Positions 1 to 53,181 of a DNA stretch of 64,000 nt are shown in pieces. How positions within the stretch are numbered: position 1 is the stretch's first letter; each line of letters starts with the position of its first letter. Source of the DNA: Bacteroidota bacterium (GTDB lineage Bacteria > Bacteroidota > Bacteroidia > Bacteroidales > JAAUTT01); assembly GCA_030706405.1 (NCBI GenBank), contig JAUZOO010000004.1, forward strand, positions 246,765 through 310,764. Reading direction: 5' to 3'. The notes below the pieces were generated by a model. The model did not search any database. It saw nothing but the letters and a program-made list of their open reading frames with translations, and was not told the DNA's origin. A program made the translations under genes and the position numbers.

Positions 1-2
1 AC

Positions 3-1361
3 AAGTTAGGAATTATGGTTTGGCAGGACATGCCCTCACCCAACTCATACACCTCTATCAACCCGCCGGCAATTGATGAAGCTGAGTTTCATTCCGAACT
101 GATGACCATGGTAAAAAAGCACTGGAACAGTCCATGCATTGTTACGTGGGTAATTTTTAACGAAGGACAGGGCGAACACAATGCCCCAACATTAGTTAAC
201 GAAGTAAGCACACTGGATCCTTCGCGGTTGGTAAACGAATCCAGTGGATGGGAGCACCAAGGATCGGGCAATATTCTGGACACCCACAGTTACCCACCCC
301 CTGCATGTCCGTCCAGTACAACACAAGCTTTGGCCTGTGGAGAATTTGGAGGTATCGGTTATGTAATCCCAGGTCATATTTGGAAGGAAGCTCCTACCTA
401 CGTTATGGTAGACAGCAAAGACAAATTCATGACCATGTATGATAATTTCACCACCGACCTCACTAATTTCAAAACAAACAATGGGTTAAGTGCTGCCGTT
501 TATACCGAAATAACCGATGTTGAAAGTGAGCTTAACGGCTTAACGACTTATGACCGGGCCGTTATAAAACCCGACATTGACAAGCTCAAAGCCTCTAACA
601 CCAAGGCAATCAACCAAAATTTATTTCTGACGGATGTATTACCAACTTCGGAAACACAGGGACACATATGGAAATACACAACCAATGCACAGGATGCCTC
701 GTCGCCCGACTGGAATAGCATTACCTTTAGCAACAACAACTGGATTTGGGGAACAGGCGGCTTTGGGACTCAAGGTACTCCCGGAAGCGTGATCCGAACA
801 ATATGGAACACCTCTGACATCTGGATGCGTCAAACTTTCTCGTTAGGCAATCTGTCTCCGGAAGCAAGGGACAGCCTTATCCTGCGGGTTCATCACGACG
901 AAAACTGCGAGATATACATAAACGGCATTTTAGCCACCTCTTTAGACGGATATACTACATCCTACACATTAGTTCCTTTATCGCAGGATGCCAAAAATCT
1001 GTTTAAAGCAAATTCCGAGAATGTCATTGCTGTGCATTGCCACCAGACCGCGGGAGGTCAATACATTGATGTTGGCATTTCGCTATTAAGCTTTCAGTCG
1101 AGGAAATATGTAGGCGTTAGCACTGTAAAAGGGGCAAAAGCTCTCGAAATCTTTCCCAACCCAACCACAGACACGATACAAATTAAGGGATTTAACAATC
1201 GGGCATTCTCTGCCCATGTAGTAAATCTTTCCGGCGTCGACCAAAATTGCCACACTCACAGCAACGGCGAGATTAATGTTTCTAACTTAAAACCAGGCGT
1301 CTATTTAATCCAGGCCAAGGCTAGCGGCGAAACCTTCTGCTCTCAATTTGTAAAACTGTAG
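3..1361 (+). CDS. Glycoside hydrolase (GH2-like TIM-barrel, C-terminal part) with a CBM-like beta-sandwich and a T9SS C-terminal sorting domain. The 5' end is cut by the window edge.
   Basis: The frame stays open to nt 3. GH2-type motifs are CIVTWVIFNEGQGE, DTHSYP and CGEFGGIG. The middle region WKYTT..DWNSITFSNNNWIWGTGGFG looks CBM-like. The last ~80 aa (LEIFPNPTTDTIQI...GVYLIQAKASGETFCSQFVKL) fit the Por/T9SS CTD pattern. Confidence 0.75.
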   Translation, partial: KLGIMVWQDMPSPNSYTSINPPAIDEAEFHSELMTMVKKHWNSPCIVTWVIFNEGQGEHNAPTLVNEVSTLDPSRLVNESSGWEHQGSGNILDTHSYPPPACPSSTTQALACGEFGGIGYVIPGHIWKEAPTYVMVDSKDKFMTMYDNFTTDLTNFKTNNGLSAAVYTEITDVESELNGLTTYDRAVIKPDIDKLKASNTKAINQNLFLTDVLPTSETQGHIWKYTTNAQDASSPDWNSITFSNNNWIWGTGGFGTQGTPGSVIRTIWNTSDIWMRQTFSLGNLSPEARDSLILRVHHDENCEIYINGILATSLDGYTTSYTLVPLSQDAKNLFKANSENVIAVHCHQTAGGQYIDVGISLLSFQSRKYVGVSTVKGAKALEIFPNPTTDTIQIKGFNNRAFSAHVVNLSGVDQNCHTHSNGEINVSNLKPGVYLIQAKASGETFCSQFVKL

Positions 1362-1379
1362 TCTGTAACCCAAGCCTTT

Positions 1380-1427
1380 CTTTTGAAGAACCTGTTGTTA
1401 CTTTTGCTAAAACAGGTTCTTCAAAAG
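1380..1427. terminator. Strong hairpin between convergent genes (putative bidirectional terminator)
   Basis: 17-bp perfect inverted repeat cttttgaagaacctgtt / aacaggttcttcaaaag with a 14-nt loop. There is no clean U-tract. Confidence 0.55.
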
Positions 1428-1457
1428 ATAATGCTAACCTTTATCAACAGAGCTGTA

Positions 1458-4400
1458 TTATCCTCCCAACTCAGCCATTAAAGAATTCTCCAGTACTTTC
1501 CAATAACGAGAAAGCTCATTGGACAGCCCAACAATCCGATAAGCTTCGGCTACACGGATCGTTTCGTGCAACATCACCAGGTAAAGGCGTATATCATAAT
1601 CAACTCCGTTCCGATAACCGATTGGCAGGGATCGAAAATAATCCAGAGAAGCCCGTGAAACCTCGGCTAACTTTTGAAGCAAAGCCTCTCCCCTCTTTTG
1701 TTCTCCGGCTGCCAGGTATAGCTCGGCCAAAGCCGGCACCTGATGATCAAATGCGACTCGTTCGTTAGGAAGGATTGTCATAATTTTATCCAACACATCA
1801 ACGGCCTTTTGCTTTTTGCCTTCAGCCAGAAGCGCACAGGCTAAATCTGCGAATTTACTGCGCAACGCCACAACCGACAGCGTGTAGATATGCGTATTAT
1901 CGAGATAAACCTTTGGATTGGCAAGCGACGTCCACGAGAAACGTTTCATCAATTTCTGATACTGCAAATCCGTATCCATCAAACCTATGTTCGATTCATC
2001 CCGGGCGTCGGCTCGGTACGGCACTAACCGGAATGCATACCCATCGGGTTGAAGATACTGGTTAATGCCAAGTTCCGTTGGCACCTGCATAGAGGCAAAA
2101 TATACCGGCCGCTCCCAATTATTCGATGCCAAAATATCGATCAACACAAGGTCATCCATCCGAAGGTCAGATCCCTTTATCGTTAGATGAACCGAATCGA
2201 CACTTTTCAATTGTTTATCGGTACGCAAAGCTCCAGACTTCAGCGCATTTACACGGTTAACCCTCAGTTCAACCTTTCGGGAAGGAATATAATTAAACAT
2301 CTTTCCGCCCTGCGAACTCACTTTGGCGCGGGCATCGTCGCTCCCGGCAAAGGCCAGAAGATCATTCACGTCCACCGCGCTATCGGTACGCTCCATAACC
2401 GGCAGGTACGTGCGCTTACCACTTACAAGCTTCTCTTCGGAAAGTGTCATTTTAAGCCCGGGACTATTATGCGACGGCTTTCGCATCTGGTTCACATACC
2501 AGTCGGCACTGAGGTACGGGAGCAATACAATACGCACATCACGACGGATGCCTTCTACCTCCTGCGCGTACCAAAGCGGATAGGTATCGTTATCGGCATT
2601 GGTAAATAAGATGGCATTCGGAGCACACGATTCGAGATAGTTTCGGGCATATTCGAGTACGGCATATCGTCCGGAGCGGTCGTGGTCGTCCCAGTTTTGA
2701 ACCGTCATCAGCACCGGAACGCCCAGCGAGACAGTCGAAGCCACTCCTACGGCCCAACCGGTGTTTAACTTTACCTTCCGAACCAGGAAATCGGCCAGCC
2801 ACATCACCCCAAGGCCAATCCATACGGCAAACGCATAAAACGAACCCACATAAACATAATCGCGTTCGCGTGGCGTGACCGGCACTTCGTTCAAAAAAAC
2901 AACGATGGCGATACCGGTAAAGAAAAACAAAAGCCCCAGCACCAAAAAATTCCGCAAGTTCGAACGATAATGAAAGAAAAAGCCAAACATCCCAAGCAAT
3001 AATGGCAAACAATAATAGACATTGTGTCCGGGATTGGTTTTCAGGTTAGCCGGAAGTTTATCCTGCGCGCCAAGCCTGGCATTATCAAGAAACGGAATCC
3101 CTGAAATCCAGTTTCCGTAAAGCACGTTTCCGTGACCGAGAATATCATTCTGTCGACCGACAAAATTCCACATGAAATAACGGAAATACATAAAGCCCAG
3201 CTGGTACCTCAAAAAGAACCGAAGATTTTCCCCAAAAGTTGGCAACATTATCTGCTGAGTCTGTCCATTAGGCGAGGTTACGGAATACGGCTTCCCCCTG
3301 AACGAAACCCATTGTTTATAAGCTTCGGCATCGCCCGGAGTAAGGCTCGCCATACGTGGGAAAAGCATCAGCGTATTGGCATCAAAAACATAATCGGGAT
3401 TTAAAGGCATGGTAACGTATTTCCCGTTAAACCGCTCATAACTGCTGCGGTCTTTCGTATCTATCACCGGCGAAGCGAACGAATTGCCATAAAATAACGG
3501 CCGACTGCCGTACTGCTCGCGGTTCAGATAATTTTCAAGAGCAAACGGGTCTTCGGGATTACCCATATCCACCGGAGGATTGTCGTGCGAACGGATAATT
3601 ATCAGGCTATACGACGAAAAGCCCAGCATAACAAGCGACAGGTAAATAATTCCGTTATACAGCAGCACTTTCCCTTTACGCCGAAAGTAATAGAGCCCCA
3701 AACCAATAACAGCTACAATGACAGCTCCGCCAATCGCGAAACCTGAATTATAGGGAAGATTCAGACTATTTACCGAGAAAAACTCAATCCACGAAAAAAA
3801 GATAGGAATACCGGGAATGAGTACATAAAGAATACCGCCCAGAATGGCCGAGCCAATCGCAATAGCAATGAATGCGTTCGTCCATGTAAGCGGATGCTTT
3901 TTAAGATAGTACAACAGTACAATTGCCGGAATGGCTAATAAATTGAGCAGGTGTACGCCAATGGCCAGTCCTACGAGATAAGCAATGAGCAACAACCACC
4001 GTTCAGAACCGGGCATGTCGGCATTCTCCTCCCATTTGAGGGCCAGCCAGAAGACCGCTGCCGTAAATAACGATGAAAGCGCATACACCTCGGTTTCGAC
4101 AGCCGAAAACCAAAACGAATCGGACACCGCATAAGCCATTGAGCCCGCCAAACCCGAGAAGAGCACCAGTATTTTCTGCCGGTTTGTGACCTCGCCTGAG
4201 GCGGGCAATAACTTGCGGGCAAACCACGTGATGGTCCAAAACAAAAACATGATGGTTAGCCCGCTGGCAATTGCCGACAGGGCATTGCTCAACCAAACCT
4301 CGCGGGCAGGATTTCCGCCGGCAAACAGCATAGCAACGTGCCCCAACAGGGTAAACATCGGCGCTCCCGACGGATGACATACTTCCAGACCTTTGGCACA

Positions 4401-4538
4401 CGACAGGAACTCGCCGCAATCCCAAAAACTCACGGTAGGTTCTAATGTTGCCAGGTATATAAACGACGAAAGCAGGAATACCGCTACTCCTGCCAGATTG
4501 TTCCAACGGCGAAAATTAATCGAATGGTTCATGAGCAT
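1458..4538 (-). CDS. DUF2723 / GT117-like polytopic membrane protein (PMT-like glycosyltransferase family) with a TPR-like C-terminus
   Basis: 1026-aa ORF. The N-terminal half has many hydrophobic helices and the SFWDCGEF...HPSGAPMF motif typical of DUF2723. The C-terminus is helical-repeat. Confidence 0.75.
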   Translation of the reverse strand: MLMNHSINFRRWNNLAGVAVFLLSSFIYLATLEPTVSFWDCGEFLSCAKGLEVCHPSGAPMFTLLGHVAMLFAGGNPAREVWLSNALSAIASGLTIMFLFWTITWFARKLLPASGEVTNRQKILVLFSGLAGSMAYAVSDSFWFSAVETEVYALSSLFTAAVFWLALKWEENADMPGSERWLLLIAYLVGLAIGVHLLNLLAIPAIVLLYYLKKHPLTWTNAFIAIAIGSAILGGILYVLIPGIPIFFSWIEFFSVNSLNLPYNSGFAIGGAVIVAVIGLGLYYFRRKGKVLLYNGIIYLSLVMLGFSSYSLIIIRSHDNPPVDMGNPEDPFALENYLNREQYGSRPLFYGNSFASPVIDTKDRSSYERFNGKYVTMPLNPDYVFDANTLMLFPRMASLTPGDAEAYKQWVSFRGKPYSVTSPNGQTQQIMLPTFGENLRFFLRYQLGFMYFRYFMWNFVGRQNDILGHGNVLYGNWISGIPFLDNARLGAQDKLPANLKTNPGHNVYYCLPLLLGMFGFFFHYRSNLRNFLVLGLLFFFTGIAIVVFLNEVPVTPRERDYVYVGSFYAFAVWIGLGVMWLADFLVRKVKLNTGWAVGVASTVSLGVPVLMTVQNWDDHDRSGRYAVLEYARNYLESCAPNAILFTNADNDTYPLWYAQEVEGIRRDVRIVLLPYLSADWYVNQMRKPSHNSPGLKMTLSEEKLVSGKRTYLPVMERTDSAVDVNDLLAFAGSDDARAKVSSQGGKMFNYIPSRKVELRVNRVNALKSGALRTDKQLKSVDSVHLTIKGSDLRMDDLVLIDILASNNWERPVYFASMQVPTELGINQYLQPDGYAFRLVPYRADARDESNIGLMDTDLQYQKLMKRFSWTSLANPKVYLDNTHIYTLSVVALRSKFADLACALLAEGKKQKAVDVLDKIMTILPNERVAFDHQVPALAELYLAAGEQKRGEALLQKLAEVSRASLDYFRSLPIGYRNGVDYDIRLYLVMLHETIRVAEAYRIVGLSNELSRYWKVLENSLMAELGG

Positions 4539-4602
4539 ACTTTTTTATTTCAGTACACTCGTTGGTGAAAAGGTTCACATAAGAAAGAAGCCTATGCTTC
4601 CT

Positions 4603-4634
4603 AAAACAAAATGGGCGAAGTTTTCACTTCGCCC
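4603..4634 (-). terminator. Rho-independent terminator after the RES gene
   Basis: Stem gggcgaagt/acttcgccc (9 bp, loop tttc). On the minus strand it is followed by TTTTGTTTT. Confidence 0.7.
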
Positions 4635-4688
4635 AACGTACTGCGTTTATATCTTGTTGGTACAATCTACGGTCATCTGAGGATTATT

Positions 4689-5540
4689 TTAACAAATTTT
4701 CCATACAAATCTAGAATTAAATGCACCCAATTCATTTGAATAGTGCGTATTAATCACCAAAGGCTCCCCATTTTGAATTGTATATTTAAATACTGCAGCT
4801 TCTCGAAGTTCCATATATTCCTCTACTGCTGATGGCAATAATGCAAAATTTCTTCCTTGATAATCTGTCCGAACACTTGGATAACATATCCCATTTAACT
4901 TCTCATTTAGAACATAATCTGTATAAATTGAACTGATTTTATAATCATGATGATTGTTGATATTTGCTTTTGCAAACTCATTTGAAAAGAAGGATAACAA
5001 ATTTTGGTAATTTTCTTCATTTAGTTCTGTATCCTGAATCTTTTGAACCCATAATTCAAATCTATTTTTTAATTCATCGACTGTAAAATAGTTCTCACTA
5101 AAACAAATATCTGCAACTTCAAAATCATCTATTACGATCCAACGACCGACTGTCATTGTAGTTTCAAAATTAGACTTTGATATATTGCGAAATTGTTCTA
5201 CTAATTCTGAAAATAATACTATTGTCGGATGTTTGATATCCCTAGTCGGAGAAGAGCCATAGAACATTGATTGAAAAGGTCTATTAGCTCTCCCATATTT
5301 GTCAATTTTTTCAATATCTGTTCGATAACTTATTTCACATTCAGAAGAAAACATGCGTCCTTCATGACTGATTCTACCTCTCTCTATAATTTCTCCCTTT
5401 TTAATTATTGAAGTCAATATTGGAAGTCTAATCCCATTTTTATGAAGTGTATAAATAATTTTATCACGTGAGACATGCTGTAAATCTGTATTCTTTAATA
5501 ATTGTATGAATTCTTGAAATGTCATGTATGATGTTGTCAT
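4689..5540 (-). CDS. RES domain-containing protein (NAD+-targeting toxin family)
   Basis: 283 aa. Candidate R-E-S triad: GRANRPFQSMFYGS (Arg), VLFSELVEQF (Glu), GICYPSVRTDYQGRNFALLP (Ser). The gene is very AT-rich compared with its flanks. Confidence 0.7.
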   Translation of the reverse strand: MTTSYMTFQEFIQLLKNTDLQHVSRDKIIYTLHKNGIRLPILTSIIKKGEIIERGRISHEGRMFSSECEISYRTDIEKIDKYGRANRPFQSMFYGSSPTRDIKHPTIVLFSELVEQFRNISKSNFETTMTVGRWIVIDDFEVADICFSENYFTVDELKNRFELWVQKIQDTELNEENYQNLLSFFSNEFAKANINNHHDYKISSIYTDYVLNEKLNGICYPSVRTDYQGRNFALLPSAVEEYMELREAAVFKYTIQNGEPLVINTHYSNELGAFNSRFVWKIC

Positions 5541-5589
5541 TTATCATTTTGCAGCCAACGGGTGGCGGTATGTGCTTTTTAAATCCTAT

Positions 5590-6183
5590 TCATTTTAACC
5601 CCAATTTTCTGTTTTCTTTTAATAATCCTATTGATTCTTTCAATCTATTAAGGATTGTTTCTTCTCTTTTGGCGTTAGTAATCCAAAGTATATAATGTCG
5701 TTTATAAGTCTGGGCAAGATTATTGAAATTTGTCAATGCAGGTTCATTTTCAGATAATGCTCTTAGGATAAAATCTGGAACCTGAAATTCTTTTTTTTCT
5801 CCATCTTTTTTTGACCCATTACTTTCCCAATCAACTCTTCCCGTTTTTAAGTAAATATCAATTTTTTCTAGTCCTGCTTCTGTCATTTTACCTTTTTCTA
5901 TCAACGAAAGCACTATTTTTTTATTTAAATCCGACCATTGGGAAATATTAGTTCTCGGTGTAAATTTTCTCACATATTGGTCAACGTCCACTTTTTTTAT
6001 AATACTATCAATCCATCCAAAACACAGTGCTTCTTCCAGAGCTTCAGTATATTTTATGCATCCAATATTTTTTTGTTTTCTATAAAATATCATCCAAATG
6101 CCAATACTTTCATTATGATTCTTCTCTAACCAATTTCGAAAAGATTCTCTACTGTTAAAATATATATGCTCAAGTTCTCTCAT
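5590..6183 (-). CDS. YdeI/OmpD-associated (OmdA, DUF1801-related) family protein
   Basis: 197 aa. N-terminus FRNWLEKNH..GIWMIFYRK...EALCFGWIDS and C-terminus YILWITNAKREETILNRLKESIGLL match the YdeI-family pattern. AT-rich; 49 nt upstream of the RES gene on the same strand. Confidence 0.7.
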   Translation of the reverse strand: MRELEHIYFNSRESFRNWLEKNHNESIGIWMIFYRKQKNIGCIKYTEALEEALCFGWIDSIIKKVDVDQYVRKFTPRTNISQWSDLNKKIVLSLIEKGKMTEAGLEKIDIYLKTGRVDWESNGSKKDGEKKEFQVPDFILRALSENEPALTNFNNLAQTYKRHYILWITNAKREETILNRLKESIGLLKENRKLGLK

Positions 6184-6587
6184 CTCGGTCTTTTTAGCAT
6201 TGCCGGTAACATCTCAGTAATCGCATTGTTATTATATCTGCATTATCCTAAATGTTCGCCGTACTAAATTAGTGTTATTCCCCAATGTTGTTTATCTTTT
6301 TGTTAAAAAATAGAAAATATTTACCCGTTCTATACCTCAGATATTACTGGCAAATCGGGGCTTTATCATCATATTTCAGCCTTTTTCAGCCATCACCCAA
6401 CAAAAAGTTATTAACAACCTACCCTTTAGCCGATTGACCTTTTAAATTTTTTACTATTTTGCCTTACGATTAAATATTCGCTGTTTCCCTTTTAAACACG
6501 GGCAGCGATGATGTTAAACAAATTAAGTACTGGCTATATGGCAATTATCTAAATAAATCAATTTATCAACATTCAAAATTTCAAAGT

Positions 6588-6971
6588 ATGGCAATTAAAT
6601 TTAAAGTTATTGAAAGAGGTCAGCCAGGAGTAGCTGGCGGTGGCGAGAAAAAGTTCTATGCCAACCCTGTTATGGATGGCGAATTATCGCTAAATGATCT
6701 GACCAAGTCGATCGAAAAAATTTGTACGGTAAGCGGTGCCGACATCCGTGCCGTGTTGTATGCCTTAGTGGATGTTTCGGTGGATAGCCTCTCTGATGGC
6801 ACCATTGTCCGCCTGGGCGATCTTGGCAGCTTGCGCGTAAGCCTCAGCTCCGAGGGCAAGGCTAAAGCCGAAGAAGTATCGGCTGCGGCAATAAAAAACG
6901 CCAGCGTAATTTTTACCCCCAGCACCCGCATTAGAGACATGCTTGCTTCGGCAAAATTCAAAAAAGAATAG
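6588..6971 (+). CDS. HU-related histone-like DNA-binding protein (Bacteroides HU_HIG type)
   Basis: 127 aa. The pattern MAIKFKV..R..PG..GG..KFYA...G.lsL.DL...I....T.s.aDi.aVL..L fits the Bacteroidota-specific HU-related family. Confidence 0.8.
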   Translation: MAIKFKVIERGQPGVAGGGEKKFYANPVMDGELSLNDLTKSIEKICTVSGADIRAVLYALVDVSVDSLSDGTIVRLGDLGSLRVSLSSEGKAKAEEVSAAAIKNASVIFTPSTRIRDMLASAKFKKE

Positions 6972-6973
6972 AG

Positions 6974-7020
6974 TCCCGTTTCCATGCTTAGGAAATTTAT
7001 TTTCCTAAGCACGGGATTTT
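6974..7020 (+). terminator. Intrinsic terminator of the HU-like gene
   Basis: Outer stem tcccgt/acggga plus inner stem gcttagg/cctaagc (13 bp in total, with a 6-nt internal loop), followed by TTTT. Confidence 0.65.
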
Positions 7021-7110
7021 AATTCCCTGCGCATCCGATTAAAATCCCCTAAGCATCCGATTATATTTTCCTGCGCACAAAAAAATATTCCCTGCGCAGG
7101 CGATTGCTAT
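7001..7110. repeat. Five tandem ~22-bp degenerate repeats (core CCTAAGCA / CCTGCGCA, then ~YCCGATTA)
   Basis: Core octamers start at 7004, 7026, 7048, 7070 and 7091, giving spacings of 22, 22, 22 and 21 bp. An inverted copy TGCTTAGG lies at 6985-6992. Confidence 0.85.
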
Positions 7111-7302
7111 CTTTAAATTTAGCTGCTCTTTTTCTTAGATTTCCCAATAACTTTCCCTCAGCAGAAAGACCTCCAGCAGGCAGATCACTGGCGTTAACCA
7201 ACGCATCTAATGATTAAAAATCAGAACAATAAACACCTCGAACTTGTTCTAGTAAAACTCAATTACATTACGCATAGTTTACTAATTTAAACGAAACTAC
7301 CC

Positions 7303-7626
7303 ATGGACTTAAGCACGAAGAAATGCAAACCTTGCGAAGGCGGCGTTGCCCCTTTAAATGAAAAAGAGGTGGCTGAATTTAAAAGCCTCCTCCCGGACGA
7401 CTGGACTGTCTCAGAAAACAGTAAAATAGCAAAAACCTTTTTATTTGTAAACTACCGTCACACCATAGACTTTGTAAATAAGGTGGCTGCTCTGGCCGAG
7501 GAAGAAGGGCATCATCCGGATCTGCATGTTTATTATGGCAAAGTTGTTGTCGAATTATGGACTCATTCCATTAACGGATTATCGGAAAATGATTTCATTC
7601 TCGCATCCAAAATTGAAAGACTATAA
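7303..7626 (+). CDS. phhB: Pterin-4-alpha-carbinolamine dehydratase
   Basis: 107 aa. Has the N-terminal KCKPCEGG..PL motif and the EEGHHPDL...V.V.L.TH signature of the PCD/DCoH family. Confidence 0.85.
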   Translation: MDLSTKKCKPCEGGVAPLNEKEVAEFKSLLPDDWTVSENSKIAKTFLFVNYRHTIDFVNKVAALAEEEGHHPDLHVYYGKVVVELWTHSINGLSENDFILASKIERL

Positions 7627-7658
7627 TACCTGCCGGATGAATATTACACATTGGCTTT

Positions 7659-7703
7659 AAAGCGAGAAAGCTGAAATACTTGGTATTTCAGCTTTCTCGC
7701 TTT
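7659..7703. terminator. Bidirectional terminator hairpin between phhB and purF
   Basis: 21-bp perfect stem aaagcgagaaagctgaaatac / gtatttcagctttctcgcttt with a 3-nt loop. The stem ends are A/T-rich on both sides. Confidence 0.8.
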
Positions 7704-7741
7704 ATCTCAGTACCCGTTACCGAATACTTTTGTCTTATATT

Positions 7742-9643
7742 TTAATACGCCCTGCGGTCGCGGCCTTCAACATAGTTGATAAACGATTTGTTAGCCACAT
7801 TGTTTCCACCGGGTGTTGGGTAATTACCGGTAAAATACCAGTCGCCAGTATCGTTAGGACAAGCTATGTGCAAGTTATCAACGGTCTGATAAATAACATC
7901 GAGTTCGGCCTTGGTTTCAGAAGTACGCAGCATCGAAGCTATTTTCTTCGAAATCTGCTCCGGCGAAAACGGCTCATAAATAGCCTTTACGTGATTTTCT
8001 ATCTGTCCCTTAGGCAGGCTTTGCGATTCCTTGCAACGCTTATAAACTTCGTTGATAACATTCGTTTTCCCGGTATCCTTAAGCAATGCGATAGCCGCCT
8101 GAAAAGCAATAAAATCGCCCAACTTGGCCATATCAATGCCATAACAGTCGGGGTAACGAATTTGTGGCGACGACGAAACGATCACGATTTTCTTAGGCTC
8201 CAGACGGTCGAGAATCTTTATAATACTCTGTTTTAACGTTGTACCACGAACGATAGAGTCATCAATAATCACGAGGTTGTCAACGCCTTTTTCGAGCGAA
8301 TCGTAAGTAATGTCATACACATGTCCAACGAGGTTGTTACGGCCTTTATCCTGGGTAATAAAAGTACGAAGCTTGGCATCCTTAATGGCTACTTTTTCAA
8401 TCCGGAATTTCTCGTTCATAATGGTATCGAGCAATTCGGGGGTAAGGTTGTTTCCGGCATCGAGGATACGCCGTTTTTTACGCTTGTTCAGGTAACTATC
8501 GGCACCTTCCACCATTCCGTAGAAAGCCGATTCGGCCGTGTTGGGTATAAACGAAAATACGGTATGGGAAACGTCGTAATCAACCGATTTAAGAATATCG
8601 GGGATAAGCAGCTCACCAAGCTTTTTGCGTTCGCGATAGATATCGCTGTCGCTGCCGCGCGAAAAATAGATACGCTCAAACGAGCAGGATTTACGAGGTT
8701 TCGAATCGCGAACCTGTTCGAGGGTAACGTTGCCGTTTTTCTTTATGATAAGGGCGTGTCCGGGCGTCAATTCCTTAACATCCGAAGCTTTTAAGTTAAA
8801 TGCAGTTTGAATAACCGGGCGTTCGGAAGCAACTACAGCCACTTCGTCGTCGTGATAATAAAATGCAGGGCGAATGCCCCATGGGTCGCGGCATACGAAA
8901 GCGTCGCCATGGCCCATGATACCGGCAATGGCATATCCGCCGTCCCACCGTTTGCTCGATTCTTTAAGTATCGAACCCACGTTCAAATTTTCGGCTATCA
9001 GTTTGGTTATTTCGTCATTTTCTTTGCCTTCGGACTTAAACTTGTCAAAAAGTTTCTGCACCTGACGATCCTGAAAATGTCCAACATTTTCGAGTACGGT
9101 AACTGTATCGGAAAAATCTTTAGGGTGCTGACCAAGAGCTACAAGCACATCAAAAAGCTCATCGACATTGGTAAGGTTAAAGTTACCGGCAAGTGCCAGG
9201 TTACGGGTTTTCCAGTTATTTACACGAAGTACCGGGTGAACGTTATTAATGCTGTTGTTGCCGAAAGTGCCGTAACGAAGGTGGCCGAGATAAATTTCTG
9301 CAGCAAACGGAAGATGGCTTTTGGCAGCGCTGGCATCGTCCATAATTCCGGGATGAGCTTTGGTTACTTCATCAAAATCATGGTATATTTTTCTGAAGAT
9401 ATGATCGATAGAATTCTCTTCGATCGAACGGTGCCGGTGAATATATTCGTTTCCGGGATCAGTGTCAAATTTAAGACTTACCAGTCCTGCGCCGTCCTGT
9501 CCGCGGTTGCGTTGTTTTTCCATCAACAGGTACAGCTTTTGCAAGCCATACATCCAAGTTCCATATTTCAACTGGTAATACTCTAGGGGCTTTAGCAGCC
9601 TAACCATGGCAATACCGCAATCATGCTCCAACGCATCGGTCAT
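7742..9643 (-). CDS. purF: Amidophosphoribosyltransferase (long Bacteroidota form)
   Basis: 633 aa. Has the N-terminal nucleophile context HDCGIAMV (Ntn amidotransferase) and the PRTase motif LVIIDDSIVRGTT. Confidence 0.9.
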   Translation of the reverse strand: MTDALEHDCGIAMVRLLKPLEYYQLKYGTWMYGLQKLYLLMEKQRNRGQDGAGLVSLKFDTDPGNEYIHRHRSIEENSIDHIFRKIYHDFDEVTKAHPGIMDDASAAKSHLPFAAEIYLGHLRYGTFGNNSINNVHPVLRVNNWKTRNLALAGNFNLTNVDELFDVLVALGQHPKDFSDTVTVLENVGHFQDRQVQKLFDKFKSEGKENDEITKLIAENLNVGSILKESSKRWDGGYAIAGIMGHGDAFVCRDPWGIRPAFYYHDDEVAVVASERPVIQTAFNLKASDVKELTPGHALIIKKNGNVTLEQVRDSKPRKSCSFERIYFSRGSDSDIYRERKKLGELLIPDILKSVDYDVSHTVFSFIPNTAESAFYGMVEGADSYLNKRKKRRILDAGNNLTPELLDTIMNEKFRIEKVAIKDAKLRTFITQDKGRNNLVGHVYDITYDSLEKGVDNLVIIDDSIVRGTTLKQSIIKILDRLEPKKIVIVSSSPQIRYPDCYGIDMAKLGDFIAFQAAIALLKDTGKTNVINEVYKRCKESQSLPKGQIENHVKAIYEPFSPEQISKKIASMLRTSETKAELDVIYQTVDNLHIACPNDTGDWYFTGNYPTPGGNNVANKSFINYVEGRDRRAY

Positions 9644-23467: not shown

Positions 23468-25657
23468 CTATCTGGTGAACAACAGTTCTCTGTATTTAGG
23501 CAGCGTCCACATTTCGTTATCAACGATAAGCTCAAGCTTGTCAATATGATAGCGAATTTCTTCGAAGAATGGAAACACTTTTTCAGAATAAGCGAGTGCT
23601 TTTTCGCGGCCATCAGGAAGTTTGTTAACAACCTTGCGAGCTTCAACCATTTCGTGAACTTTAGCTTTGATGGTAGAAATATGGTTACCCACTTTCTTTA
23701 TCAGCTCCAGACGGGCACAAGCCAATTCATTAAATTCTGCTTCTGAGAACAGTTCTTTAATACCTTGTACGTTCTTAATTAACGCTGTTTGGTAATCAAC
23801 AGCTACAGGAACGATATGATTTAAAGCGAGATCGCCAAGTACACGAGCTTCGATCTGAATCTTCTTGGTATAAGTTTCCCATTTAATTTCGGTACGGGCA
23901 TGAAGTTCTTTCTCGCTCAATACGCCGGTCTTCTTAAACAGGTTAATAGATTGTTCGCTGATGTAAGAATCGAACATTTTAACAGGGTTACGTTCAACAT
24001 CGAGACCACGTTTAGCGGCTTCAACCTGCCATTCTTCGCTATAACCATTACCGTCGAAACGAACATCTTTCGATTCGATGATGTATTTGCGCAATACCTG
24101 GAAGATAGCTTCGTCTTTCTTAACACCTTTAGCGATAATAGCATCAACTTCTACCTTAAATTCGAGCAACTGAGCAGCAAGCGCGGTATTCAGTGCACAC
24201 ATGGCAGCAGAACAGTTAGCTGAAGAACCTACGGCACGGAATTCAAAACGGTTACCGGTGAAAGCAAACGGAGACGTACGGTTACGGTCAGTGTTGTCAA
24301 GAAGAATTTCAGGAATGCGTCCGATGTCAAGTTTGATTTCGGTTTTCTCGTCCGGGGTCATCTTCTGGTCAGTAACCTTTTCTTCGATCTGATCAAGCAT
24401 CTTGGTCAGATAAGTTCCAAGAAATGCAGAGATGATGCAAGGAGGAGCTTCGTTAGCACCCAAACGGTGTGCATTGTTTGCCGAAGCAATAGAAGCCTTA
24501 AGCAAAGGAGCATTTTTATGAACAGCGACCAATGTATTTACAAGGAAAGTAAGGAACTGAAGGTTGCTTTTTGGATTTTTGCCAGGAGAAAGCAAGTTTA
24601 CACCTGTATCCGTACAAACTGACCAGTTGTTGTGTTTTCCAGAACCGTTTACTCCTCCAAAAGGTTTTTCGTGAAGCAGACATGCGAAGTTATGGCGACG
24701 AGCAATATTACGCATAAGAGTCATAACCAAAAGGTTGTGATCTACAGCAAGATTAGCTTCTTCGTAAACCGGAGCAAGTTCATATTGGTTAGGAGCAACC
24801 TCGTTATGGCGGGTTTTTACCGGAATACCTAATTTCCACGATTCGAATTCAAGTTCTTTCATGAATTCCTGAACACGGGGAGGAATAGCACCAAAATATT
24901 GATCTTCTAATTGTTGATTTTTTGAAGATTCGTGCCCCATCAGGGTACGTTCGGTAAGAACTAAGTCAGGACGGGCTTCATAAAGAGCTTCGTCAACCAA
25001 GAAGTATTCCTGTTCCCAACCAAGGTTAGCGGTTACTTTCTGAACATCTTTGTCGAAATAATGACAAACTTCAACAGCAGCTTTATCCAAAGCATTTAAA
25101 GCCTTTAATAAAGGAGTTTTGTAGTCGAGAACTTCGCCTGTATAAGATATGAAGATAGTCGGAATACAAAGTGTATCATCAAGGATAAATGCAGGAGATG
25201 AAGGATCCCATGCGGTATAACCACGAGCCTCAAAAGTTGCACGAATACCGCCACTTGGGAAGCTAGATGCATCTGGTTCCTGCTGAACCAATAATTTACC
25301 AGAGAAGCTTTCAATTACCGAACCATTTCCGGCAGGGTCTGCAAAAGCATCGTGTTTTTCGGCAGTACCACCTGTTAAAGGTTGGAACCAGTGTGTATAA
25401 TGGGTTGCGCCCAGTTCAATAGCCCACGATTTCATTCCTGCAGCTACCTGGTCGGCAATCTTACGGTCGATTCGTTGACCCTTATCAATAGCAGCTATAA
25501 CTGCCTGATAAGCTTCTTTTGACAGATATTTCTGCATTTTAGCCCTGTCAAAAACTAATTTTCCAAAATATTCGGAAGTTTTTTCCTTAGGAGCATCAGC
25601 AACAACAGGTTTCCTGCCAATTGCAGTCTCCAATGCTTTAAATCTTAATGTCGCCAT
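23468..25657 (-). CDS. glnA: Glutamine synthetase type III
   Basis: The 729-aa length and overall sequence pattern (..HYTHWFQPLTG.., ..NGSGKHNNWS..) are characteristic of GSIII/GlnN in Bacteroidota. Confidence 0.9.
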   Translation of the reverse strand: MATLRFKALETAIGRKPVVADAPKEKTSEYFGKLVFDRAKMQKYLSKEAYQAVIAAIDKGQRIDRKIADQVAAGMKSWAIELGATHYTHWFQPLTGGTAEKHDAFADPAGNGSVIESFSGKLLVQQEPDASSFPSGGIRATFEARGYTAWDPSSPAFILDDTLCIPTIFISYTGEVLDYKTPLLKALNALDKAAVEVCHYFDKDVQKVTANLGWEQEYFLVDEALYEARPDLVLTERTLMGHESSKNQQLEDQYFGAIPPRVQEFMKELEFESWKLGIPVKTRHNEVAPNQYELAPVYEEANLAVDHNLLVMTLMRNIARRHNFACLLHEKPFGGVNGSGKHNNWSVCTDTGVNLLSPGKNPKSNLQFLTFLVNTLVAVHKNAPLLKASIASANNAHRLGANEAPPCIISAFLGTYLTKMLDQIEEKVTDQKMTPDEKTEIKLDIGRIPEILLDNTDRNRTSPFAFTGNRFEFRAVGSSANCSAAMCALNTALAAQLLEFKVEVDAIIAKGVKKDEAIFQVLRKYIIESKDVRFDGNGYSEEWQVEAAKRGLDVERNPVKMFDSYISEQSINLFKKTGVLSEKELHARTEIKWETYTKKIQIEARVLGDLALNHIVPVAVDYQTALIKNVQGIKELFSEAEFNELACARLELIKKVGNHISTIKAKVHEMVEARKVVNKLPDGREKALAYSEKVFPFFEEIRYHIDKLELIVDNEMWTLPKYRELLFTR

Positions 25658-25694
25658 ATTATTTTACGTTAATTGTGATTTTTATTTGCCGTTA

Positions 25695-25702
25695 CAAAAA
25701 TA
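25695..25702 (-). promoter_or_regulatory. Candidate Bacteroidota -7 box for glnA
   Basis: Minus-strand TATTTTTG matches TAnnTTTG, 37 nt upstream of the glnA ATG. Confidence 0.3.
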
Positions 25703-26028
25703 TTCAATTTCACAAATTAACCCCCATATTTCTATGTTTTTTTAATGAAAATTAACATTTATTTTACAGTTACCCTCTTTTTTGAGGAACAATGATTTAA
25801 TATTTATATTTTCAATATTAATAAACAACAGATTCTACGGGAGTTTCGTCTTTTTTAGAATGAACCGATAAATTTACAACATTTCGTAATGCAACAGCAA
25901 AAAACAACAATAAAGTTCCCTTAAAAAATAAAAAATAGCGCAAAAGCCCTAAAAAAAAGACTCTATTTTAGATTTATCGCAAAAAATCATTTTCCATAAC
26001 GCTTTCTCCAACCAGAGCGGTCTTACTA

Positions 26029-26613
26029 TTACTTACTGTAATTTCGGAAATGAGCCACCTCTTTCGATGCAAGCTTCACCTTCTCATACCAAGCTTCGCC
26101 ATATTTTCGCACCAACGGTTCGCGTAAAAACACATACAAAGGGACGTTTGTCTTTTTTCCACAAGTCAAAGCAGGAGAACAGATATCCCACTCATGATAA
26201 TTCAACGCTTCGAAATCGGCATATTTTGTAATCCGAATGGGATACAGATGGCACGAGACAGGTTTCTGAAAAGTAATTACGCCTGCCTCAAAAGCTTTCT
26301 CAATAGCGCATTTGGTAACTCCATTTTCAAAAACAACATAAACACATTCTTCTCCATTTACCAAAGGAGTAACTTTATCGCCATCGCTATCGATTACCGA
26401 CGTTCCTTGAACCTCAACGGCTTCAACCCCTTCTATTCTCATAAACAGCTTAACTTCCGGGAAAATACGATCAAGCGCATCAACTTCTTCATCATCGAGC
26501 GGAGCTCCGGAATCCCCATGCACGCAACAAGCACCTTTGCACTTATCCAAGTCGCACACAAATTTCTTTTCAAAAATATCGAAACTTAATATGGTATTAT
26601 CAATCTGTAGCAT
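26029..26613 (-). CDS. DUF3109 family Cys-rich protein
   Basis: 194 aa. Has the N-terminal motif CDLDKCKGACCVHGDSGAPL, conserved later Cys residues (VSCHLYPIR), and the typical DUF3109 layout. Confidence 0.7.
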   Translation of the reverse strand: MLQIDNTILSFDIFEKKFVCDLDKCKGACCVHGDSGAPLDDEEVDALDRIFPEVKLFMRIEGVEAVEVQGTSVIDSDGDKVTPLVNGEECVYVVFENGVTKCAIEKAFEAGVITFQKPVSCHLYPIRITKYADFEALNYHEWDICSPALTCGKKTNVPLYVFLREPLVRKYGEAWYEKVKLASKEVAHFRNYSK

Positions 26614-26722
26614 GGCTTAACCTCACAATAAATTGCCGCGAAGATAGCCTTTTGAAATAAAATTACCCAATTAACCTGTTTAGCCAACCTATTTTACATG
26701 AATAAAGCCGGAATTTCCGGCT

Positions 26723-27226
26723 TTATTCATAATCTTTAAGTGTATCCATTAATTTTTTTCTCGTAAAAAATATTCGGCTTTTCACCGTACCAAGTTTAAG
26801 ATCAAGCTTCTGAGCAATCTCCTTATACTTATACCCTTCGGTATGCATCTTAAAAGGGACTTTAAAATCGTCGCTCAGACCGTCAATTACTTTATTAATT
26901 TCCTGTGCAGAATAGGCCGAATCGGGCGCAACATTCACATTGTCGCTATTCTGACTAAGAAAATATAAATCTTTAGTATTATCAAAAGCCGTATTTTGAC
27001 GGACATTCCTACGATAATTATTAATAAAGGTATTTTTCATAATCGTATACGTCCATGCCTTCAAATTTGTGTATTGAACAAATTGTTCTCTGTAAACAAG
27101 AGCTTTATACATAGTCTCTTGAAGTAAATCCTTGGCATCTTCCCTGTTGGACGTCAAACTCAGGGCAAAACGGGCTAGCTTATCTTCGAGACTTATGAGC
27201 TGATGGTTAAATTCAATTGCTGTCAT
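26723..27226 (-). CDS. ECF-type RNA polymerase sigma-70 factor
   Basis: 167 aa. Region 2 is DAKDLLQETMYKALVYREQF....LKAWTYTIMKNTFINNYRR. Region 4 is an HTH, YKEIAQKLDLKLGTVKSRIFFTRKKL. Confidence 0.85.
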   Translation of the reverse strand: MTAIEFNHQLISLEDKLARFALSLTSNREDAKDLLQETMYKALVYREQFVQYTNLKAWTYTIMKNTFINNYRRNVRQNTAFDNTKDLYFLSQNSDNVNVAPDSAYSAQEINKVIDGLSDDFKVPFKMHTEGYKYKEIAQKLDLKLGTVKSRIFFTRKKLMDTLKDYE

Positions 27227-27573
27227 AGTCGTCTGTTTTAACGTTATTTTTATTTAAAACAAATCTAAATAAAAATAAGAAATTTGCAAAATTTTTAGTC
27301 AAATTTTTATTTTTATTTATACTAATTTTAAATAACATCCATATACAAATAATTGCATATGAAGTATTTAAATTAAACTTAAAATATTACTACTAATATC
27401 TAGGGCAATTATCGGATCTTAAGATGCATCGTAATAAACACGTGTTAAAGCAGAGTGAATATTCCTAAATGACTGAATATAACCGACAATATCAACGCGC
27501 TTCAATTATAAAAATTTAATTATCAGGAAAAGCTGAAACGGAAAAGCGCAAAACGAAGGTTTGTTAAAAAACA

Positions 27574-43253: not shown

Positions 43254-44406
43254 ATATTTCAGCTAATTTGTTACTTAATTCTTCTCCTCGCAAATCCTTG
43301 GCAATAATCACTCCCTTATCATCAATAAGATAGGTTGCCGGCACTTTCTTAACCGTGTAATGCTTAAAAATTGGAGACTCCCATACTTTAAGGTCGCTTA
43401 CCTGTGTCCACCACAAACCGTCTTCGCGGATAGCGGTAATCCAGGCATCTTTTGATTTGTCGAGCGAAACCTGGTAAATTTCAAACCCTTTATAATTGTA
43501 TTTCCGGTAGAGGGCTGGGAAGTTTGCATTTTCAGCACGCGAAGGTTTGTCCCACGAAGCCCAGAAATCGAGCAAAACATATTTTCCCTTGAAAGACGAC
43601 AGTCTTACCGTATCGCCGCGAAATGTCGGCAGGGCAATGTCCGGGGCTTTAGCTCCCATTTCCGAGAGCATACGTTCCATATCGCTTACCCGTTGTTGCT
43701 CAATCATCTCTTTCACATTGGCATGCAACGAGTTTACATAAGGTGCATTCGGGAATTTTTTATACATTATCGAATCGACACGAGAGAAGTATTTAAAATC
43801 CTCAACTTTGTAAAATATAAACGAATTTTTATTAACCTGCTGATAAAGAGCCATTAAACTAGCAAACGACGATGAATGTTTCTCAATAAAATCAATTGAA
43901 AACTTACGCTGGCCTTCCAAAATCTGTTCATAATTCATTGTAAGAACATTGCGAATATTGGCTATGTTTTTATTATTAAGAAACTGCTGATAGATATGAT
44001 TCAGAGAATCCACACTGGCCTGGGTTTTGGCAAGTTTCTGAGACAATTGTTGCGCAAATTTCGACTCGTCTGAACCATTAACCGAATAGGTATAAAACAA
44101 GCTGTCGGCACGGCCTGTGATTTTAATCCGGTCGCCGGGTTCGATAATCAATGTAATCGGGCGGTCATTACCTACCCAAAGTGTAAAAAACGATGTGTAT
44201 TGAATATCCCGTTTAAACTTGAACGACCCTGACTTATCGAGCATTACCGAGTCAATTTTGCCATCGTTCTTAACTGTTAATTCCTGAAAATAGACATATT
44301 CGGATTTAGCTTTCTCCAGTTTTCCTTTAACCACAATTTTCGGACCCGATTGTTTACACGAGTAAACCAGAACACTGAGTAATAAAATAGAAACAAACTT
44401 ATTCAT
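43201..44406 (-). CDS. TlpA/AhpC-TSA-like thioredoxin-fold lipoprotein (DUF4369-type N-terminus) lacking the CXXC motif
   Basis: Start taken at the ATG at 44406 (MNKFVSILLLSVLVYSCKQ, a lipobox). The C-terminal thioredoxin-fold region reads GKYVLLDFWASWDKPSRAE where WCxPC is expected. Confidence 0.75.
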   Translation of the reverse strand: MNKFVSILLLSVLVYSCKQSGPKIVVKGKLEKAKSEYVYFQELTVKNDGKIDSVMLDKSGSFKFKRDIQYTSFFTLWVGNDRPITLIIEPGDRIKITGRADSLFYTYSVNGSDESKFAQQLSQKLAKTQASVDSLNHIYQQFLNNKNIANIRNVLTMNYEQILEGQRKFSIDFIEKHSSSFASLMALYQQVNKNSFIFYKVEDFKYFSRVDSIMYKKFPNAPYVNSLHANVKEMIEQQRVSDMERMLSEMGAKAPDIALPTFRGDTVRLSSFKGKYVLLDFWASWDKPSRAENANFPALYRKYNYKGFEIYQVSLDKSKDAWITAIREDGLWWTQVSDLKVWESPIFKHYTVKKVPATYLIDDKGVIIAKDLRGEELSNKLAEIFDKADNTTSTQTSPSGN

Positions 44407-52886: not shown

Positions 52887-53181
52887 ACTAATTATCAATA
52901 CTTATAAACTTTATTCACAAAACAATCTCACAAAAAGCATTTAGATTTATTTGAAACTTAAAAACCACAAACGCCTTCAATTGTTTATGCAATGTAGCAC
53001 TAAAATTTAATTTGGATGAATGTGTTTTCTCAGGAAAAACTACGAAACCCATTGTGCTGTGATATTCACGCTGAAATATCTAAAAAAATAAAGCCCCTCT
53101 ATAAAAATAGAGAGGCAAATATTTTTCGGTTTACTTTAGCATAACGTCCTATTTAAAATAGGAAGAGAGAGGTTTGTCGAA

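Follow-up and report, generated by a model that had tools for sequence, protein, structure and literature searches.

Can a RES-domain gene travel, and be kept, with no antitoxin at its side? The question is raised by an AT-rich islet in a 64-kb stretch of a Bacteroidota genome (GenBank assembly GCA_030706405.1, contig JAUZOO010000004.1, positions 246,765 to 310,764), the whole of which we call the window. The islet holds two co-oriented genes, one for a RES-domain protein and one for a YdeI/OmdA-family protein. To our knowledge, RES enzymes were long recognised only as the toxin half of Xre-RES pairs. An earlier interpretation made from the letters of this DNA, the sequence-only reading, had noticed no canonical antitoxin. 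This is borne out: no Xre/DUF2384 gene is present in the window, and none that is canonical was found in relatives. The explanation that we consider best overall, with moderate confidence, is that the islet consists of two stranded cassettes, and that one encodes a stand-alone, self-controlled RES enzyme acting on nicotinamide adenine dinucleotide (NAD+). The two genes are as follows.

4689..5540, minus strand: RES-domain gene, 283 amino acids from the first ATG (Pfam RES, AlphaFold, Foldseek, conservation)
5590..6183, minus strand: YdeI/OmdA-family gene, 197 amino acids (Pfam OmdA; independent cassette)

The RES protein probably starts at Met6 (ATG at 5525, 278 amino acids), since the NCBI record and all homologs have the same start. 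The co-orientation described previously is correct. The spacing of 49 nt applies to the first ATG of the RES open reading frame (ORF) and becomes 64 nt with the probable Met6 start. No terminator lies in this gap, and the two genes may be co-transcribed.

Fold and active site of the RES protein

The downstream gene had been taken to encode a RES-domain protein, and both profile and structure comparisons agree. The Pfam RES model (PF08808) scores 26.4 bits, against a cut-off of 23.2, and aligns to residues 195-243 only. These residues align with positions 95-143 of the 157 in the model, so that the first two thirds of the domain, counted from the N terminus, must exceed the model by about 55 residues. 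The AlphaFold prediction (predicted local distance difference test score, pLDDT, 95.1; predicted template-modelling score, pTM, 0.91) begins with two helices, at residues 8-17 and 25-34, followed by a beta-rich core. Three helices, within residues 155-212, fall in the part of the core that is not matched by Pfam. Using Foldseek against the PDB, the sole significant matches were two entries for NatT (E 1.8e-5 and 7.7e-5, probability 1.00). NatT is a RES-domain NAD+ phosphorylase toxin of P. aeruginosa (PMC11535050).

The predicted catalytic set, numbered from the first ATG, comprises R54, R84, Y94, E112, S222, R224 and N231. Among 73 family members, R54, R84, Y94 and E112 are invariant, as is W134 (73/73 each); S222 is found in 71 and N231 in 69. 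The RES triad proposed from the letters alone thus corresponds to three real motifs, with R84, E112 and S222 invariant or nearly so. In NatT, the conserved active-site residues are R23, R82, Y93, S184 and N193, and R186 is among the phosphate ligands (PMC11535050). The step from R82 to Y93 is +11, compared with +10 from R84 to Y94 in the RES protein. The spacing of S184, R186 and N193 (+2, +9) is the same as that of S222, R224 and N231 (+2, +9). The closest homolog, at locus L005, is 84% identical at the amino acid level. Between the two genes, the ratio of nonsynonymous to synonymous substitution rates (dN/dS) is 0.09, with a synonymous distance (dS) of 0.89. By these alignments, the RES gene is shown to be under purifying selection, with the predicted catalytic set intact and constrained.

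Relatives of the RES protein are rare. Just 66 were detected in 5.8 billion proteins searched; they have about 275-320 amino acids and the named ones are all from Bacteroidota. When 1.84 billion cluster representatives were searched exhaustively with a profile, 2499 matched at E < 1e-3, including 325 at E < 1e-30. Of the best 150, nearly all have 270-330 amino acids and match over the full length; other RES proteins may be present in the weak tail of the 2499. Among 73 diverse family members, 66 match Pfam RES (E up to 10; best E 9.7e-9). Judged by these searches, the RES protein is a member of a distinct family of about 300 amino acids. A plasmid collection contained no match and a phage collection one weak match (24% identity, E 6e-4). 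A search of the BFVD viral structures with the RES model retrieved uncharacterised proteins only (TM-score about 0.3).

Four observations count against an active site like that of NatT. First, the global TM-score between the RES protein and NatT is just 0.33-0.37. Second, profile hidden Markov models (built from 34 and 73 members), and a single member, reached no solved RES toxin among the PDB sequences; hence, the family must be highly divergent. Third, given the low TM-score and the lack of a profile match, the residue mapping to NatT follows motif order and spacing, not superposition. Fourth, the phosphate-ligand position, R224, is arginine or lysine in just 57 of the 73 members, so the chemistry could be phosphorolysis, hydrolysis or ADP-ribosyl transfer.

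The sequence-only reading had also described an extra N-terminal region of about 70 residues that might resemble a helix-turn-helix (HTH). The part preceding the RES core is shorter, with about 40 residues in two helices, and the first core strands carry the invariant R54. No HTH family matched the RES protein or its family members. A DnaA_N domain in two to three members (E about 1e-3) was judged not meaningful. Two members, P0310 (562 amino acids) and P0313 (446 amino acids), carry 150-250 extra residues that match no Pfam model and are N-terminal in P0310; these may be alternative sensor domains on the same RES core. In an uncultured Bacteroidales metagenome-assembled genome, a RES homolog with 55% identity (L017, 4001-4594) was called as 197 amino acids matching residues 6-149. 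A tBLASTn match spans residues 6-281, and this gene is probably frameshifted or interrupted.

Probable cassette boundaries in relatives and in the window

Comparison with the DNA of relatives adds what the sequence-only reading had not seen, namely that the two genes behave as mobile cassette units. One block of about 650 nt, window positions 5566/5570-6209/6219, has 90-95% nucleotide identity to four contexts of YdeI-like genes (L103-L106). The other, 4682-5528, has 83.6% identity to the loci L005 and L006. Hence, homology to the YdeI contexts runs as far as 5566-5570, and that to the RES loci begins at 5528.

In the four YdeI contexts, identity sets in some 26 nt ahead of the ATG, at G|TTACCGG, G|TTAGTTGG or G|TTTACCGG (the bar marks the breakpoint), and stops about 25 nt after the stop codon. 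At this 5' boundary, L105 and L106 read ACG|TTAGTTGG and ACG|TTTACCGG. L106 has two copies of the repeat that precedes the YdeI-like gene, and these part ways exactly after GAAACGTT.

In L005 and L006, AAACG|TTACCAGCAA is found 29 nt before the RES ATG. Eight nucleotides past the stop codon, the sequence CTGCTGGTAAC-ACGTGGTT...AACCACG-GAAACG|TTACCAGCAAG follows. These boxes delimit a site of the attC type, TGCTGGTAAC...GTTACCAGCA, of 139 nt, the end boxes of which are complementary at 10/10 positions. In L005, the bottom strand folds with -26.5 kcal/mol (z = -5.9, 0/200 shuffles). Its R stem of 11 bp is followed by a 4-nt bulge on one side, then by an L stem of 20 bp and a variable loop. Apart from the RES ORF, the cassette therefore has just a leader of 29 nt on the 5' side and a tail of 8 nt on the 3' side. 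Homology between the window RES gene and L005 ends 7 nt past the stop codon, where the R'' box of L005 begins. The same is true of both window cassettes: homology with relatives stops where the attC R'' box of the relatives begins.

Repeat arrays hold RES homologs in Tenacibaculum finnmarkense and in one metagenome contig. At locus L001, a RES homolog with 55% identity is one of a series of small ORFs in the same orientation. The spacer repeats, at least seven in number, each end in an invariant CGTTA after which the sequences diverge. Whole spacers form long hairpins with terminal stems of 25-27 bp (z = -3.9, -2.2 and -0.7), and the stem sequences vary between spacers yet still pair. Note that fold windows of 126 nt were too narrow for these repeats and gave no signal. 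In two strains of T. finnmarkense (L108 and L109; GCA_021390725.1 and GCA_021206045.1), the GC content is 0.26 and the RES homolog is 54% identical. The L108 array (1-9163) has at least 10 repeats, of 140-157 nt, running from CAAC-ACCGTATATAAT to ATATAC-AAAAACG|TT. Between L108 and L109, 95.5% identity spans exactly repeat, RES gene and repeat, and the downstream genes differ. Overall, an attC-type site is evident in L005/L006, and attC-like elements are found in L106, L108 and L001.

In the window, we recognise the following remnants of such boundaries.

6200..6210, minus strand: YdeI cassette 5' junction G|TTACCGGCAA (R'-type half-site), 17 nt upstream of the ATG, where homology with three other YdeI contexts begins
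5549..5560, minus strand: inter-cassette junction CG|TTGGCTGCAA, 24 nt upstream of the RES ATG (Met6)
5561-5589, minus strand: YdeI cassette attC stub, between the YdeI stop codon and the junction, where attC is reduced
4627..4688, minus strand: RES cassette 3' tail, with a candidate junction CG|TTGGGCGAAG at 4638-4627, where composition turns host-like

The junction-like sites, read on the minus strand, are GTTACCGGCAA at 6210-6200, CGTTGGCTGCAA at 5560-5549 and CGTTGGGCGAAG at 4638-4627. The motif GTTRSSNGCAA has five matches in the window compared with 0.92 expected. The third junction is weak, with three motif matches against 1.1 expected. At the start of the RES cassette, Tenacibaculum has CCG|TTGGCAG, 32 nt before the ATG, and the window has CCG|TTGGCTG, 33 nt before the ATG. 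Since the Tenacibaculum locus was fetched afterwards, this is independent support for the window RES junction. Altogether, G|TT boundaries are seen as breakpoints in the four YdeI contexts, in the L106 repeats and between L108 and L109, and in the window as GTTACCGGCAA and CGTTGGCTGCAA.

Intact sites are not apparent in the window. No significant hairpin follows either islet gene, including at 5520-5600, and a geometry scan of the window for attC found no credible site. One match of that scan, at 4498-4665, was set aside as chance. It pairs a box downstream of the RES gene with conserved TMEM260 coding sequence, its energy comes mainly from a terminator, and a similar background match occurs at 7873-8060. 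No recombinase is encoded within 4 kb of the islet. Of ten window ORFs of suitable size, the eight with a Pfam match fit housekeeping-type families and not a tyrosine recombinase; the other two match no Pfam family. The 11-mer GTTACCGGCAA recurs at 9182-9192 (plus strand), inside a PurF-like gene, where about 0.03 occurrences would be expected in 64 kb. This second copy could be a coincidence or a secondary recombination site.

We conclude that division of the 1.6-kb islet core (about 4637-6210) into two independent integron-type single-ORF cassettes is largely shown by the alignments. That both genes arrived as cassette-type units is likely. The pair is probably immobilised, since only stubs are left of its attC sites and a search for an integrase found none. 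In outline, two cassettes would have been captured and then stranded, their palindromes collapsing, presumably by deletion of the hairpin interiors.

How closely does this resemble known integrons? Clusters of attC sites without an integrase are termed CALINs (Cury et al. 2016; Neron et al. 2022). The relatives share with integron cassettes and CALINs a series of single-ORF units in one orientation, an imperfect palindrome (ends ...AAC and GTT...) after each unit, breakpoints at G|TT, and the same cassette next to different neighbours between strains. The window shares with CALINs two adjacent cassettes with no integrase nearby. Unlike a CALIN, it has only stubs of attC sites, and so would not qualify as one. 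CALINs are regarded as degraded integrons and, according to IntegronFinder 2.0, integrons are very rare in complete Bacteroidetes genomes (PMC9024848).

Some of our data fit the cassette interpretation poorly. No integron integrase (IntI) was seen in the window or in the fetched stretches of relatives' DNA. The minimum free energy fold of the L005 site has no extrahelical bases, and the attC-like elements of L001, at about 240 nt, are longer than canonical attC. Furthermore, the window junction motif GTTRSSNGCAA was partly defined from the same sites that it matches. Hence, we use the term 'integron-type cassettes' with the caveat that no integrase was seen in this DNA, that the L005 fold shows no extrahelical bases and that the L001 elements are unusually long. 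An alternative is that the repeat-flanked modules of relatives are bounded by other palindromic repeats, akin to repetitive extragenic palindromes or bacterial interspersed mosaic elements (REP/BIME-like, terminator-bearing), and that the islet entered by homologous or illegitimate recombination. We consider this unlikely. The ...AAC and GTT... ends are conserved even though inner stems vary yet pair, homology breaks exactly at G|TT in several independent comparisons, and the arrays consist of co-oriented single ORFs with leaders of 25-33 nt. Two strains of one species also carry the same cassette with different neighbours. Such repeats would nevertheless account for the missing integrase, the element length in L001, the terminator-like hairpin within the Tenacibaculum repeats, the reported rarity of integrons in complete Bacteroidetes genomes (PMC9024848) and a window with no intact palindrome.

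Several features of the relatives' DNA are noted in passing. Each Tenacibaculum repeat has an internal terminator-like hairpin (GAAAATCCTTAGGGATTTTC), with co-oriented small ORFs between repeats; the array ORFs include a Gp49/HTH (HigBA-like) pair. A literature search found no paper linking Tenacibaculum with integrons. L108 also contains tandem repeats with a period of 97-99 nt, at 343-999 (5-6 copies) and at 5406-5771 (3-4 copies), the second just upstream of the RES cassette. In L106, at 4323-4679, at least 12 tandem 21-nt units overlap a 154-amino acid ORF that directly precedes the YdeI cassette, pointing to a repetitive protein motif of 7 residues. Upstream of the RES homolog of Ichthyenterobacterium magnum (L016), two 262-nt palindromic copies occur, at 960-1221 and 2996-3257. 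This element has perfectly complementary ends, GGGGTTAAAC...GTTTAACCCC, with a folding energy of -40 kcal/mol, and may be another lineage-specific attC-like or REP-like element.

Control and possible role of the enzyme

Since the mobile unit in L005 is the RES ORF plus 29 and 8 nt of non-coding DNA, no antitoxin can travel with the RES gene. Moreover, with one ORF as the whole unit, control has to be built into the enzyme itself. Gene neighbourhoods are in line with this. In 22 loci, all-against-all clustering of RES neighbours found no recurring family, except in duplicate loci of one genome. Same-strand genes adjoining RES homologs are mutually unrelated: most have no Pfam match, and others encode an Old-like ATPase, a DUF4365 protein or a carboxyl transferase. 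Ahead of the closest RES relative (84% identity) lies a gene of 161 amino acids that is unrelated. The islet itself has neither an Xre/DUF2384 gene nor a match to PADLOC or to any Rfam family. The exceptions, which speak against an antitoxin-free family, are two of 19 loci with a small HTH_3 (Xre-type) gene upstream of the RES-family gene (L007, 3612-3980; L014, 3332-3751). Neither product has DUF2384 and the two do not cluster with each other; that of L007 scores 25.0, against a cut-off of 25.8, on an 'antitoxin Xre-like HTH' model. It may be that certain branches of the family gained a regulator or an antitoxin. We conclude that the window protein is very probably an active RES-fold enzyme with no dedicated antitoxin, as predicted from its residues and its neighbours. 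Among three options in the sequence-only reading, a self-regulated RES toxin is the most likely and a YdeI-like antidote falls away.

How might such an enzyme operate? We envisage that it is harmless when made, probably because the N-terminal hairpin and the added residues of the RES core inhibit it. A signal, for instance phage infection, would then switch it on. The activated enzyme, an NAD+ phosphorylase or NADase, would cleave NAD+, and perhaps NADP+. The resulting NAD+ depletion would lead to growth arrest of the infected cell.

A precedent exists in aRES, stand-alone antiphage RES proteins (Osterman et al., bioRxiv 2026, 10.64898/2026.01.28.702374). The aRES proteins are found in defence islands, are non-toxic until infection, convert NAD+ to nicotinamide and ADPR-1P (ADP-ribose-1-phosphate), and protect against phage (10.64898/2026.01.28.702374). 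They are defined by PF18870 together with RES (hhsearch probability above 80%) and a length of 300-600 amino acids, and are from Enterobacteria (10.64898/2026.01.28.702374). Like aRES, the window protein has no operonic partner, conserves the catalytic arginine, glutamate and serine, and has extra non-catalytic sequence fused to the RES core. Part of the window RES family lies beside defence genes; other loci, with the window locus among them, are housekeeping. Unlike aRES, none of the 73 members has PF18870 at the sensitivity of HMMER, nor do the longer members; this is a mark against equating the two. Instead, the window family has about 40 residues before the core, and a core longer than the Pfam model. 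The window protein is also shorter (278-283 amino acids, in a family of about 270-330, compared with 300-600 for aRES), and the family is mainly from Bacteroidota rather than Enterobacteria. We regard the window RES family as a new variant of solo RES proteins, with a second architecture of the stand-alone enzyme, spread on single-gene cassettes in Bacteroidota.

The Xre-RES toxin-antitoxin systems (MbcA-MbcT, ParS-ParT, P. putida Xre-Res and NatR-NatT) are more distant. The RES fold, and the order and spacing of active-site residues, are shared. By contrast, the window has no upstream Xre/DUF2384 antitoxin, no such gene recurs in relatives, sequence profiles reach no solved RES toxin, and the N-terminal hairpin and longer RES core are additional.

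Is phage defence the physiological role? By analogy with aRES, defence through NAD+ depletion is a plausible, though tentative, assignment. Some loci of RES homologs contain Old/GajA-like ATPases, GmrSD, a reverse transcriptase, PDC-M19A or HigBA-type pairs. Integron cassettes, more generally, carry phage-defence genes (10.1101/2024.07.02.601719; PMC12614218). Set against this role, the window locus and several homolog loci are housekeeping neighbourhoods and not defence islands, and no PADLOC model matches the RES family. Note also that NAD+ cleavage, toxicity and defence by this family are predictions only, from sequence and analogy. A more elaborate proposal is an undescribed, antitoxin-free family of RES NAD+ phosphorylases, on Bacteroidota integron-type cassettes, that acts in phage-triggered abortive infection and has a new module for sensing and auto-inhibition, made up of the N-terminal two-helix hairpin and of helices in the longer RES core, in place of PF18870. 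In this full form, the proposal is possible but doubtful.

The protein might instead have an active RES fold yet serve neither to arrest growth as a toxin nor in defence, for example as a specific ADP-ribosyltransferase or NAD-metabolising accessory cargo. ADP-ribosyl transfer is established for RES proteins of the ParT type. In favour of such an enzyme are the variable phosphate-ligand position, the absence of an antitoxin and of any sign of lethality, the housekeeping surroundings of several homologs and the silence of PADLOC. Against it, characterised RES enzymes are all growth-inhibitory or defensive, and here strong purifying selection keeps all RES catalytic residues strictly conserved. 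The distribution, too, is patchy, AT-rich and cassette-borne, in part beside Old/GajA-like, GmrSD, reverse-transcriptase and PDC-M19A genes. We give a benign enzyme a minor share of our belief. That the RES gene is a decaying relic, silenced or inactivated and now without function, is far less probable. The attC sites are degraded and neither islet gene has an upstream Bacteroidetes-type promoter motif, as a relic would predict; yet the ORF is intact, with all catalytic residues, a dN/dS of 0.09 over a dS of 0.89 and a very confident structure model.

This leaves the partner gene. The YdeI-like protein matches the Pfam OmdA model (PF13376) at 54.9 bits, against a cut-off of 25.6, over the full length (positions 1-60 of 60). 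PF28474 (DUF8412) is on record for every listed YdeI homolog, and a sequence search of the PDB found no solved relative. The family is large: more than 6000 matches, hundreds with over 70% identity, in the same database that gave 66 for the RES family. The closest relative is 94% identical at the amino acid level, and named members come from Bacteroidales, Ignavibacteria, Delongbacteria, Lentimicrobiaceae and others. Such unusual conservation over a wide range suggests frequent cassette-mediated transfer of this protein. The dN/dS of the YdeI-like gene, compared with L103 and L106, is 0.19-0.21. The synonymous distance to the nearest known relatives differs five-fold between the genes (dS 0.89 for RES and 0.17 for YdeI), which fits separate histories but depends on the relatives sampled.

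The two families also occur apart. No YdeI homolog was found within 4-5 kb of RES-family genes in 22 loci (tBLASTn and BLASTP against all ORFs), about 20 of which count as independent contexts. None was found among the called genes of two Tenacibaculum loci either. Conversely, four loci with YdeI proteins of 86-92% identity have no RES gene. A non-canonical toxin-antidote pair, in which the YdeI-like protein neutralises the RES toxin as one functional module, is the least probable of all: despite adjacency, co-orientation, a 49-64 nt gap with no terminator and a shared unusual composition, it is contradicted by this mutual absence, by the family sizes, by the five-fold difference in dS and by the separate homology blocks with a cassette junction between them. 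We conclude that the YdeI-like gene is an unrelated neighbouring cassette, with nothing linking it functionally to the RES protein. The tempting annotation of YdeI as a RES antidote is thereby removed as wrong.

If these interpretations hold, the locus points to a second, structurally different, stand-alone RES family beside aRES, mostly in Bacteroidota, barely detectable with Pfam and absent from PADLOC. A single-ORF unit of this kind would offer a compact system in which to study what holds a RES active site inactive and what turns it on. Attention is also drawn to attC-like arrays in Tenacibaculum and in further low-GC members of the Bacteroidota, although integrons were reported to be very rare in this phylum. 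On the more elaborate proposal above, arrays of the attC type would be common in Flavobacteriia and other Bacteroidota, leaving 'fossil' cassettes with collapsed attC sites in genomes without the integrase. The islet would show the look of cassettes stranded in a genome with no integrase.

The variable slot and composition of the islet

The surroundings of the islet contain the following features.

1458..4538, minus strand: TMEM260-like (DUF2723) gene, one boundary of the variable slot
4602..4635, minus strand: intrinsic terminator-like hairpin and T-run, between the RES and TMEM260-like genes
6211..6587, no strand: AT-rich non-coding stretch (GC 0.32), between the YdeI cassette and the divergent HU-HIG gene
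6588-6971, plus strand: HU-HIG gene (PF18291, 122 bits; GC 0.48), inside the slot
7303-7626, plus strand: pterin-4a-carbinolamine dehydratase (PCD) gene (GC 0.41), inside the slot
7742..9643, minus strand: PurF-like amidotransferase gene, 633 amino acids, the other boundary of the slot

In the window, the PurF-like and TMEM260-like genes are about 3.2 kb apart and enclose the PCD, HU-HIG, YdeI-like and RES genes. By comparison, the closest TMEM260-like relative (63% identity) has a PurF-like gene, of 633 amino acids, directly upstream on the same strand with a gap of 157 nt. In L107, a TonB-dependent receptor gene separates the TMEM260-like gene from a PurF-like gene 81.5% identical to 7742-9643. 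Because the slot is empty in one relative, and has other cargo in another, the interval is variable and the islet is not core. Note that these relatives are distant, so the insertion cannot be dated. Eighty metagenome loci with TMEM260-like relatives, of 47% identity or less, had no neighbour in common with the window and were uninformative. The HU-HIG and PCD genes (6588-7626) are on the opposite strand, have host-like GC, and do not occur at this place in either of the two relatives compared. Looking up the exact HU-HIG protein sequence gave no match.

The sharp shift in composition reported by the sequence-only reading is confirmed. In 1.5-kb sliding windows across the 64 kb (mean 0.417, standard deviation 0.033), the minimum is reached by those starting at 4601-5101 (0.306-0.311), so that the shift is the strongest in the window. 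The low-GC stretch, 4640-6600, has a GC of 0.30 compared with 0.42 for the window. Individually, the RES gene has 0.300, the YdeI-like gene 0.298 and the non-coding DNA at 6184-6587 0.324, and each of the remaining ORFs of at least 100 amino acids has 0.35-0.49. Third codon positions (GC3) are at 0.20 and 0.22 in the islet genes versus 0.48-0.53 in neighbouring genes. The earlier values of about 53% and 60% for the flanks were too high; both the TMEM260-like gene (1458-4538) and the HU-HIG gene (6588-6971) have 48.4%.

Origin elsewhere is indicated by more than composition. Closer relatives exist in other genomes for the islet genes (84% and 94% amino acid identity) than for host genes (63%). 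The surroundings of the nearest relatives of both islet genes have a GC of 0.26-0.33, matching the composition of the genes themselves. In 16 of 19 loci, the RES-family gene has a lower GC than its locus. We conclude that the islet is foreign, as had been suspected, and that import from low-GC Bacteroidota, into the slot between the PurF-like and TMEM260-like genes, is largely shown.

A terminator beyond the RES gene, also predicted earlier, is present. It consists of a 10-bp stem (six G-C pairs) with TTTTGTTTT after it, at minus-strand positions 4635-4612, and the surrounding 111 nt fold with z = -3.4. This hairpin is G+C-rich and overlaps the candidate junction, and it cannot be assigned to islet or host. 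Around the islet, no flanking direct or inverted repeats typical of a transposon or island were found. Matches to sigma-70-type promoters in the islet are at chance level only, and the Bacteroidetes TAnnTTTG motif is absent upstream of both the RES and YdeI-like genes. The stretch 6211..6587 has no recognisable attC, attI, promoter or RNA family, and no DNA match to any fetched locus. Milder low-GC stretches, of about 0.34-0.37 in 1.5-kb windows, occur at 25300-27400, 43600-43800 and 52300-52900. These contain small ORFs, such as 26723-27226 (GC 0.35) and 53392-53946 (GC 0.36), and the islet is more extreme than any of them.

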